A stretch of 4,377 nt of DNA from a virus (IMGVR_UViG_2671180431_000010), one strand, 5' to 3'. Positions 2,472 through 4,377 are shown, numbered from the stretch's first letter. Notes: generated by a model not told the origin, from the sequence alone. Numbers and translations: made by a program.

Positions 2472-3113
2472 TCAGCGACCAATCACCACAACCTGACCAC
2501 CATCACCTTCATCTGCTGTGCTGATCTCCTGAGATACCACACGTGATCCCACGCGCATTTCACCGTACAGAACGGGCAGAACATTGCCCTGGGCAACCAT
2601 ATTATCCAGTGAAGAAAAATAGGTGTTCTGTTTGCCGTTATCCGTTGTCTGTGTGCGGGGGGTTTTGGGTTTAGGGGCCAGCATCTGTGCAACACCGCCA
2701 AGCGTCATACTGGCACCGAGAGAAAACAGCAGATTACTCGCCATAATTCCTACCCCCGGCATCCATATAGCAACCGCCATAACAGCCGCCCCCAGCACAG
2801 CCTGAAACACACCGCCACTTTTGGCTCCTGCCAGACGCGGCACGATATGGATCACAGCACCATTTGCCAGCGGTTCATTAAGACGGGCTGATAATTCCGT
2901 TTCACCTGTATCACGCCCGGCAATGCGTACCTGATACCAGCCGTCGCTCAGCTTCTGACGAAACGCCGGGAGCTGTGTGGCCAGTGCCCGGATGGCTTCA
3001 GCCCCCGTTTTCACACGAAGGTCGATGCGGCGGCCAAATCGTTGTAAATCCCCGTAAAGGCAGATGCGCGCCATGCCCGGTGACGCCAGAGGGAGTGTGT
3101 GCGTCGCTGCCAT
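2472..3113 (-). CDS. I: Tail assembly protein I (gpI family), 213 aa: N-terminal ubiquitin-like (beta-grasp) region, a diglycine, a glycine-rich hydrophobic central segment and a conserved C-terminal region
   Basis: Complete ORF in the track (MAATHTLPLASPGMARICLYGDLQRF...GGQVVVIGR). Position between K and J, the ~103-nt overlap with K and the 60-nt spacer before J all match lambda gene I. Start ATG at 3113..3111 is preceded by GAGAGAGG about 11 nt upstream; stop TGA at 2474..2472. Confidence 0.9.
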   Translation of the reverse strand: MAATHTLPLASPGMARICLYGDLQRFGRRIDLRVKTGAEAIRALATQLPAFRQKLSDGWYQVRIAGRDTGETELSARLNEPLANGAVIHIVPRLAGAKSGGVFQAVLGAAVMAVAIWMPGVGIMASNLLFSLGASMTLGGVAQMLAPKPKTPRTQTTDNGKQNTYFSSLDNMVAQGNVLPVLYGEMRVGSRVVSQEISTADEGDGGQVVVIGR

Positions 3114-3754
3114 TTGTCGGTATACCTCTCTCGTTTGCTCAGTTGTTCAGGAATATGGTGCAGCAGCTCGCCGTCGCCGCAGTAAATTGCGGCGTGATTC
3201 GGCACCGATGAACCAAAACAGCACAGCAGCACATCGCCCGGCTGTGCCGCTGACAACGGCACCTGATACAGCCCCGTCGCCTCTAGATTATCCAGATAGA
3301 GATTCTGGCCGTTACGCCACCAGTCATCCTCACGATGAAAGTCCGGCATCTCAATCCCCGCCAGATGATAAGCATCCCGGAACAGTGTGTAACAGTCCGT
3401 CACACCGTGCTCAAAGCGCCGCCCGGTGAGATGCGGCACACAGCGGAACTTATGAATCGTCCCCCGGCAGACCAGCCACCACGGCAAATCACTCTGCACC
3501 TGCAGCCGCCGGTCGGCCTCACTCAGCCAGGGCAGACCACCGGGGTGGCTGTGGACCAGCGCCACAATCTCACCCTGCATTTCTGCCTGCAGCCAGTCTT
3601 CCGGCGACATACGGAAATACGCCTCCGGCTCACCGGAGATATTCACGCAGGGGAAATATCTTTCCCCCTCCGGCGTGCTTACCACGAAGCCGCACGACTC
3701 CGCTGGCGCACATCGCCGGGCGTGCGCCAGAATCGCTGATTCTGTCTGTGTCAT
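3011..3754 (-). CDS. K: Tail assembly protein K (gpK family), 247 aa as the full ORF: N-terminal JAMM/MPN (Mov34) metallopeptidase-like domain plus C-terminal NlpC/P60 (C40) cysteine peptidase-like domain. An alternative internal start (Met49, ATG at 3610..3608) would give a 199-aa product
   Basis: ORF track protein MTQTESAILAHARRCAPAESCGFVV...; JAMM signature H68-S-H70-PGGLPWL-S-EA-D (HxH x7 S x2 D) with an upstream ESCG (Glu19) resembling the JAMM catalytic-Glu motif; downstream GVTDCYTLF and NHAAIYCGDGELLHH are consistent with an NlpC/P60 Cys/His active site. Gene order L-K-I-J as in lambda. The start is uncertain: the upstream ATG at 3754 lies 5 nt after the L stop with no clear SD, while the internal ATG is preceded by GGAGG about 11 nt upstream. 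Confidence 0.88.
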   Translation of the reverse strand: MTQTESAILAHARRCAPAESCGFVVSTPEGERYFPCVNISGEPEAYFRMSPEDWLQAEMQGEIVALVHSHPGGLPWLSEADRRLQVQSDLPWWLVCRGTIHKFRCVPHLTGRRFEHGVTDCYTLFRDAYHLAGIEMPDFHREDDWWRNGQNLYLDNLEATGLYQVPLSAAQPGDVLLCCFGSSVPNHAAIYCGDGELLHHIPEQLSKRERYTDKWQRRTHSLWRHRAWRASAFTGIYNDLAAASTFV

Positions 3755-3759
3755 GGGAT

Positions 3760-4377
3760 TTACTGCGAAAGTTTGTTAATGGAAAGGAAGCTGCCAAAGT
3801 TGCCGACATTATTGCGAAACTTACAGCCACTCAGGCATTTGCTGCATTTATCCTTCGTGATATCGGACGTCGGCTGGTCATATTCATCCGCGACCGCCGG
3901 ACCGCTATAACCGCACTCATCGCCGCGATAGGTCCAGGTGCAGGTGTTGGCCAGCATGATACGTCCCGGAAAAACAGCGCCATCCGTTTCAGTCGGCGTG
4001 GACAGTACAAAAGAGGCACTGACCGCGCTCAGTTCGCTGCACTGCTCGATGCGCCAGCGGCTGATCACCTCCTGCTCCGGATCGGCTTCGCTGTTTCCGT
4101 TGACGAAGTTCACCGCATCCAGAAAGCGGGCGTAAACCTTACGCCGGACCACCGTTCCGCCGACCAGACTCTGCAGATCTTCCGCCATCCCGGTGATCAT
4201 GCCGTGCAGGTTAGAGACCGTCAGTGTCGGACGGGCAGCACTGCCCTTGCCGTTCATCTCAAATCCACTCCCCTGAATGGGATAGGCCTGATACTGCCGC
4301 CCCTGCCAGGTGACCGGCTCACCTTTTTCGTTCTGCTCATTACAGAAAAAATAACGTTCTCCACCGACCTCTGTCAG
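3760..4377 (-). CDS. L: Minor tail (tail tip) protein L, gpL family; 5'-partial (N-terminus beyond the window end), C-terminal 205 codons present, including a cysteine-rich putative Fe-S cluster region
   Basis: The minus-strand frame is open from the window edge: hand translation of 4377 downward gives LTEVGGERYFFCNEQNEKGEPVTWQGRQYQAYPIQGSGFE, continuous with the track ORF (MNGKGSAARPTLTVSNLHGM...FLSINKLSQ, stop at 3762..3760). I recognise this as the lambda gpL C-terminal region. Cys residues occur at ORF positions 73, 106, 115, 138, 141 and 145. The reading frame extends 5' of the track ORF's first Met, so 4257 is an internal Met and not the true start. Confidence 0.92.
   Translation of the reverse strand: MTEVGGERYFFCNEQNEKGEPVTWQGRQYQAYPIQGSGFEMNGKGSAARPTLTVSNLHGMITGMAEDLQSLVGGTVVRRKVYARFLDAVNFVNGNSEADPEQEVISRWRIEQCSELSAVSASFVLSTPTETDGAVFPGRIMLANTCTWTYRGDECGYSGPAVADEYDQPTSDITKDKCSKCLSGCKFRNNVGNFGSFLSINKLSQ

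Follow-up and report, generated by a model that had tools for sequence, protein, structure and literature searches.

Tail-tip genes of the window

The stretch of viral DNA analysed here, referred to as the window, is 4,377 nucleotides long (IMGVR_UViG_2671180431_000010). A lambdoid tail-tip module is located on its minus strand and consists of K and I, preceded by the 3′ end of L and followed by the 5′ end of J. The gene order L-K-I-J is common to lambda and the window. The window is a lambdoid mosaic and not lambda itself; phage records reach at most 95.5% identity across the full 4.4 kb. As in the TAPK family, K has an L-like gene before it and an I-like gene after it, and the siphophage tail module continues with J. 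The K protein of the window is 100% identical over 247 aa to the K encoded in those lambda-DNA contigs that have one G more than the lambda reference. The features are as follows:

3760..4377, minus strand: 3′ part of L, a tail tip gene whose start lies beyond the window; named L or minor tail protein in matching records
3762..3760, minus strand: stop codon TAA of L, followed by a 5-nt spacer (ATCCC) and then the ATG of K
3011..3754, minus strand: full open reading frame of K, 247 codons; JAB/JAMM domain, then NlpC/P60 domain
3611..3754, minus strand: codons 1–48 of K, absent from the classical 199-aa gpK; Pfam profile positions 3–41, pLDDT 95–98, dN/dS 0.06–0.34
3689..3706, minus strand: P17-A-E19-S-C21-G22, the Glu half of the JAMM motif; its aligned counterparts are PNEACG (2KKS) and VEVCG (PfJAMM1)
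3622..3626, minus strand: GGAGG within codons 43–45 (CCG GAG GCG, P-E-A), a Shine-Dalgarno look-alike before the Met49 ATG
3620, minus strand: G missing from NC_001416/J02459, after reference position 14266 and 9 nt upstream of Met49
3608..3610, minus strand: Met49 ATG, the K start in the lambda reference annotation and an internal codon here; codon 49 is CTG, ATC or ATT in other homologues
3512..3553, minus strand: H68-S-H70-x7-S78-x2-D81, the zinc-binding half of the JAMM motif; conserved in 41 homologues
3083..3424, minus strand: NlpC/P60 (C40) domain, residues 111–224, with C121, H187, and H199 (Pfam PF00877)
2472..3113, minus strand: gene I, ubiquitin-like domain and structural C-terminal part; proposed substrate of K

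The frame of K is opened by an upstream ATG at 3754..3752, 5 nt past the stop of L, and is unbroken to the TGA at 3013..3011 (247 aa). The N-terminal sequence of the 247-aa protein is (M)TQTESAILAHAR. In the NC_001416 annotation L ends at 14127 and K is given as 14276..14875 (199 aa), which agrees with the length given in the initial annotation of this DNA. Residues 49–247 of the window K correspond to the annotated lambda protein (NP_040598.1). The annotated length is the only difference between the two, the reference starting K at Met49 on a sequence without one G. The Met49 ATG and the GGAGG upstream of it were both pointed out initially and are both present in the window. The frame had also been described as open for 48 codons above Met49; this holds in the window and fails in NC_001416, where the frame is broken in that interval. 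The span of 3609–3754 given for these codons ends within the Met49 codon, and the additional 48 codons occupy 3611..3754.

Domains of K and the proposed processing of gpI

The 247-aa form of K is matched by Pfam Prok-JAB (PF14464) at residues 3–104 with a score of 52.3 bits against a cut-off of 25, and positions 3–112 of the 114 in the profile are covered. For the 199-aa form the score is 23.3 bits, under the cut-off of 25, and the match is confined to profile positions 63–112. The NCBIfam desampylase model scores 29.8 bits for K against a cut-off of 130 bits. The K motif E19-x48-H68-S-H70-x7-S78-x2-D81 fits the JAMM signature EXnH(S/T)HX7SXXD as given in the accessible text of Ambroggio et al. 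2003 (PMC300881). The translation contains ESCGF at residues 19–23 as well as H68, H70, and D81, as had been stated initially, and S78 is also present.

The family profile of K matches the solved JAMM/MPN domains 2KKS, 2KCQ, and PfJAMM1 (5LDA, 5LD9) over positions 2–102. The conserved Glu column of this profile (Glu19) is aligned with a Glu in 2KKS, 2KCQ, and PfJAMM1, and the likeness of the ESCGF Glu to the JAMM Glu, suggested at first from the motif, is borne out by this alignment. Glu19 is taken as the catalytic Glu because the JAMM motif defines that residue as catalytic, and the profile alignment supports its predicted placement at the JAMM active site.

The structure of the 247-aa protein was predicted with AlphaFold2 (pLDDT 95.8, pTM 0.90). 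Residues 1–48 sit inside the JAMM fold of this model, an outcome in favour of the long form for the modelling check proposed initially, and form a helix (residues 3–15) and two strands (residues 21–27 and 30–36) with pLDDT values of 95–98. For the N-terminal half of K, Foldseek returned PfJAMM1 (target TM 0.64, rmsd 2.9 Å, 108 columns) and also Rpn11 and CSN5. The N-terminal half of K is thus predicted to adopt the MPN fold, and according to the model codons 1–48 encode helix 1 and strands 1–2 of the JAB/JAMM domain, Glu19 included.

The C-terminal half of K is matched by Pfam NlpC/P60 (PF00877) at residues 111–224 with a score of 49.2 bits against a cut-off of 23, covering positions 1–105 of 105 in the profile, and this match is found in both forms of K. 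D120, H187, and H199 are invariant in 41 homologues, and C121 is conserved in at least 90% of them. By family resemblance, D120, C121, H187, and H199 would make up the catalytic set. The Foldseek matches of this half are MepS, LytE, and Spr. Residues of about 1–105 make up a JAB/JAMM domain, a predicted zinc metallo-isopeptidase whose active site would need Glu19, His68, His70, Ser78, and Asp81. Residues of about 111–224 make up an NlpC/P60 cysteine peptidase domain with Cys121, His187, and His199.

K of the window is a member of the TAPK family of Iyer et al. 2006, with the same two domains and the same ubiquitin-like TAPI/gpI neighbour. The accessible text of that paper (Iyer, Burroughs & Aravind 2006) describes the N-terminus of gpI as ubiquitin-like and TAPK as JAB plus NlpC/P60. 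[quoted passage not shown] Cleavage of gpI by gpK was reported orally in 2025. The N-terminus of gene I is matched by Pfam Lambda_tail_I. Gly100-Gly101 of gpI (window positions of about 2811–2816) ends the ubiquitin-like domain just before hydrophobic helices. In the cryo-EM structure of lambda tails, the virion gpI is resolved from residue 101 onward, and K is required for tail assembly. The JAB domain of K likely cuts the ubiquitin-like N-terminal domain off gpI during tail-tip assembly, and Gly100-Gly101 may mark the site of this cleavage. A JAB domain without its first helix, first two strands, and Glu could not cut gpI, which is a functional argument for the 247-aa form. Expression of gpK for studies of gpI processing must use the 247-aa open reading frame.

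The same fold and the same E...H-S/T-H-x7-S-x2-D motif as in K are found in P. furiosus JAMM1 (5LDA, 5LD9), the Haloferax desampylase, and AfJAMM. Prokaryotic JAMM enzymes cleave ubiquitin-like SAMPs from their substrates, a reaction that resembles the removal proposed for the gpI domain. These enzymes are stand-alone cellular proteins that act on isopeptide-linked conjugates, whereas gpK is fused to NlpC/P60, and its proposed target is a linear fusion in a phage structural protein. The MPN+ fold of the eukaryotic Rpn11 and CSN5 is common to K according to Foldseek, at about 20% identity. Rpn11 and CSN5 act within large complexes and without the NlpC/P60 fusion that K has. For E. coli MepS/Spr and B. 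subtilis LytE, the likeness to the C-terminal half of K extends to the profile, the fold, and the conserved Cys and His residues. MepS/Spr and LytE are secreted cell-wall hydrolases, whereas gpK is not detected in virions.

Conservation of codons 1–48 and the base missing from the lambda reference

Codons 1–48 were compared among homologues of K. Fourteen of the 48 positions (I8, L9, H11, A12, P17, E19, S20, C21, G22, Y33, P35, N38, S40, and F47) are invariant in 18 homologues with identities down to 67%. A more distant set was composed of 41 cluster representatives with 33–59% identity to K. In this set G22 and N38 are invariant, and P17, E19, C21, and F47 are conserved in at least 90%. H68, H70, and D81 are invariant in the same 41 sequences and S69 and S78 are conserved in at least 90%, so that the conservation of the N-terminal part is on a par with that of the zinc-binding half. 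The full-length distant matches align from query residues of about 4–10 onward.

The substitutions were analysed in divergent loci from genome contigs; the copies of K in viral contigs are 97–100% identical and are useless for this purpose. The dN/dS values for codons 2–48 are 0.06 for E. albertii, 0.21 for Gifsy-1, and 0.32–0.34 for Citrobacter. The excess of synonymous substitutions in these codons has Fisher p values of 3e-6 (E. albertii), 4e-4 (Gifsy-1), and 3e-3 (Citrobacter). The pooled pN/pS is 0.49 in codons 2–48 vs 0.30–0.31 in the rest of K, a slightly weaker constraint. No frame-breaking indels within codons 1–48 were found in codon alignments of 20 intact loci. These comparisons show that the 48 N-terminal codons are under purifying selection. 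The homologue check proposed in the initial annotation thus favours the long form, as the codons are conserved at the protein level with a synonymous bias (18 close and 41 distant homologues; codon alignments), and the frame-breaking indels that were named there as counter-evidence are absent from the 20 intact loci.

An open reading frame in another frame (3630..3830, 66 aa) was considered as the source of the conservation and was rejected; the substitutions are synonymous-biased in the frame of K. Two loci have altered copies of the gene. The K homologue of E. coli ECMA0423 (L126, CP178302) is disrupted inside codons 37–47 and has an open reading frame of only 98 codons; it is regarded as a decayed or error-laden copy because further frameshifts occur along its K gene. 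A MAG contig (L112) carries an in-frame internal deletion, which gives a K of 212 aa.

If the classical annotation were right, only the Met49 product would be made and the upstream 48 codons would be an open, noncoding spacer. This annotation is found in NC_001416 and in two records that copy it, OM418627 and Gifsy-1 (NC_010392), and the sequence ahead of Met49 is a good Shine-Dalgarno look-alike. The 48 codons are nonetheless conserved as protein and under purifying selection across genera, they complete a Pfam domain that is otherwise sub-threshold, and they carry the Glu of the motif. Met49 is missing in many homologues, and the reference annotation itself rests on a sequence that is short of one base. 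The classical reading is therefore considered to have almost no chance of being correct.

The base in question, window position 3620, was located by alignment: the sequence is GGAGGC-TATTTCCGTATG in NC_001416 and GGAGGCGTATTTCCGTATG, with the extra G, in the window. Translation of NC_001416 from the equivalent ATG at 14133 runs out of frame at position 135 of the open reading frame. Because the 1982 sequence is without this one G, K and the upstream ATG fall in different frames in the reference. Programmed ribosomal frameshifting was considered for the split reading frame of the reference and was rejected, since the frame is continuous in every other copy, each of which has the additional G.

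The G is present in all 16 lambda-identical stretches, which comprise two phage records (h434 imm21 and O276) and 14 contigs. In 13 of the 16, both phage records included, there are 0 mismatches to NC_001416 and the G is the single gap. The 14 contigs are lambda DNA contaminants within assemblies of unrelated organisms. Most of the contaminant DNA (loci L085–L096, L103, L105, L110, L111, L121–L124, L127, and L128) matches NC_001416 exactly once the extra G is set aside. The G is also carried by OM418627 (a re-sequenced lambda derivative), by phage O276, and by Escherichia and Shigella prophages. When 454 reads of ATCC lambda were mapped to J02459 by Allen et al. 2011 (Table S5, PMC3059205), 232 of the 235 reads at 14267 had a G where the reference has a gap. 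A one-base deletion at position 138 is found in the same ATCC lambda data set (PMC3059205, Table S5). The insertion at 14267 appears in the read mapping to J02459 without a locus because the site lies in the annotated gap between L and K.

A genuine frameshift of the 1982 stock, which would then have made only truncated K, could also account for the missing G in J02459, and laboratory lambda does have at least one real frameshift, in stf. K is needed for tail assembly, however, and the stock sequenced in 1982 was presumably viable. The G was also recovered in 16 of 16 independently sequenced lambda-identical stretches and in 232 of the 235 ATCC lambda reads. The compensating one-base deletion at 138 fits paired errors in an old sequence, and the run at this site, GGAGGCG, is rich in G+C and of a kind that would be prone to gel compression. 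A true mutation in the sequenced stock is very unlikely on these grounds. The two indels (the 14267 insertion and the 138 deletion) are presumably also listed in a commercial supplier's notes on lambda DNA.

Judging from the sequence comparisons, the classical gpK of 199 residues is an artefact of annotation that goes back to one G omitted from the 1982 reference. The first in-frame ATG after the error, located by chance behind GGAGG, was taken as the start of K.

Contigs of lambda were also observed at low coverage in assemblies of Neobacillus, Pseudoxanthomonas, Shewanella, Bradyrhizobium, Leeuwenhoekiella, Kitasatospora, and others. The lambda contigs in unrelated assemblies are evidently laboratory or spike-in contamination of public assemblies.

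Start codons and annotation of K and I

The two candidate starts of K differ in their upstream sequences. For Met49, GGAGG is located at a spacing of about 10–11 nt and the best anti-Shine-Dalgarno duplex has an energy of −9.5 kcal/mol. The upstream ATG (3754) has no recognisable Shine-Dalgarno sequence and an anti-Shine-Dalgarno duplex energy of 0. Translational coupling to the termination of L is proposed because the upstream ATG is without a Shine-Dalgarno sequence of its own, and K is most likely initiated in this manner. An ATG located 5–12 nt past the stop of an L-like gene is kept in Escherichia, Salmonella, Citrobacter, Providencia, Xenorhabdus, and Edwardsiella. This ATG is preceded by AAGGA, AGAGG, or AAGGAG in Providencia and Xenorhabdus.

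In place of ATG, codon 49 reads CTG in a 96%-identical prophage of E. ruysiae; E. albertii has ATC there, Providencia and Xenorhabdus have ATT or ATC, and the consensus at residue 49 of the distant homologues is Ile. The GGAGG is absent from the homologues in Citrobacter, Edwardsiella, Providencia, and Xenorhabdus; those of Citrobacter and Edwardsiella still have ATG at codon 49. The initial annotation left the choice between the long form alone and the production of both isoforms, and the long form is now favoured because Met49 and its GGAGG are not conserved. K is very probably a 247-aa two-domain peptidase translated from the ATG at 3754, with a JAB domain that likely cuts gpI, and the 199-aa form an artefact.

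The production of two isoforms would combine the 247-aa enzyme with a 199-aa Met49 product, composed of NlpC/P60 and a crippled JAB domain, that has a separate role. The GGAGG pairs well (−9.5 kcal/mol) at 10–11 nt before the ATG, gene finders often pick Met49, and the 199-aa clusters amount to thousands of ENA/Logan gene calls. Versions with NlpC/P60 only are noted for some phages in the accessible text of Iyer et al. 2006. However, homologues do not retain the ATG and the GGAGG as a pair, and the consensus at residue 49 is Ile. The spacing between the two elements is longer than optimal. The GGAGG spans the P-E-A codons and may partly reflect coding constraint, because Pro43 is nearly invariant among the close homologues. 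The Met49 product would be without helix 1 and strands 1–2, and its JAB half would probably misfold. The existence of two isoforms is thus improbable, and it is correspondingly doubtful that the GGAGG and ATG at Met49 act as a real second start in lambda and its closest relatives, giving a JAB-dead 199-aa isoform. If they did, the 199-aa isoform could have a role as, for example, a non-cleaving binder of gpI or a timer, or could provide an activity of NlpC/P60 only. Such a second start would be a lineage-specific innovation, absent from homologues of the Providencia type.

The 247-aa form favoured here is present in current databases. The exact sequence is named 'MULTISPECIES: C40 family peptidase [Enterobacteriaceae]' at NCBI and is found in 291 contigs; no NCBI name was found for the exact 199-aa sequence. 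Of 5426 complete E. coli genomes, 4324 contain the 144-nt extension. In each of 12 sampled RefSeq records of E. coli it falls within an annotated CDS, whose product is called C40 family peptidase (11 records) or MPN domain-containing protein (1 record). An example from RefSeq has L followed by a 247-aa K that begins 5 nt past L, and the RefSeq record of phage O276 is arranged likewise. The 247-aa K is already known in practice, and the architecture of JAB plus NlpC/P60 was published in 2006. Lambda K also appears in the JAMM paper of 2003. In the searchable literature, no explicit mention was found of a 247-aa length for lambda K, of a misplaced start in its annotation, or of a missing G as the cause of the 199 aa. 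K is unmentioned in the PRFect frameshift paper, and the site of the missing G is not covered in the MutaMouse lambda gt10 paper.

Other records retain the short form. OM418627 has the G and yet repeats the coordinates of the 199-aa K, and Gifsy-1 (NC_010392) also has a short K. The clusters of 199-aa K (P0058, P0060, P0065, and P0067) have thousands of members, which are mostly gene calls from ENA/Logan metagenomes. Automatic gene finders apparently favour Met49 because of the GGAGG. The case of K illustrates how an erroneous start can become fixed when a Shine-Dalgarno look-alike lies just past a sequence error, and this look-alike still misleads metagenome gene callers.

For curation, the point is that NC_001416 and the records copying its annotation give K without half of its JAB domain, a defect that later work inherits. 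For the lambda two-hybrid interactome, the open reading frames were cloned from NC_001416, and no interaction of K with other tail proteins was obtained. In a review of 2020, HHpred applied to the 199-aa K gave only a peptidase domain at residues 52–182.

The 3′ end of K overlaps gene I in another frame. The conserved ATG of I at 3113 gives an overlap of 103 nt, and overlaps of 97–103 nt are found in 14 of 14 loci checked, from Escherichia to Providencia (among L004 and L098–L125). The dual-coding stretch is observed at window positions 3011–3070, K residues of about 228–247. The C-terminal helix of K (residues 230–243; SAFTGIYNDL is kept in close relatives) shares its DNA with the N-terminus of gpI. 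Many distant homologues of K stop before this C-terminal tail (residues of about 228–247).

Pfam Lambda_tail_I is fully covered (positions 2–83 of 83) only by the long I from the ATG at 3113. In the RefSeq/PGAP annotations of NZ_AP018488 and phage O276, I starts at a nonconserved GTG that overlaps the stop of K and is 190 aa long. With this GTG start, the first strand of the ubiquitin-like domain is cut off. The errors are mirror images of each other: the lambda reference has a short K and a long I, and PGAP has a long K and a short I.
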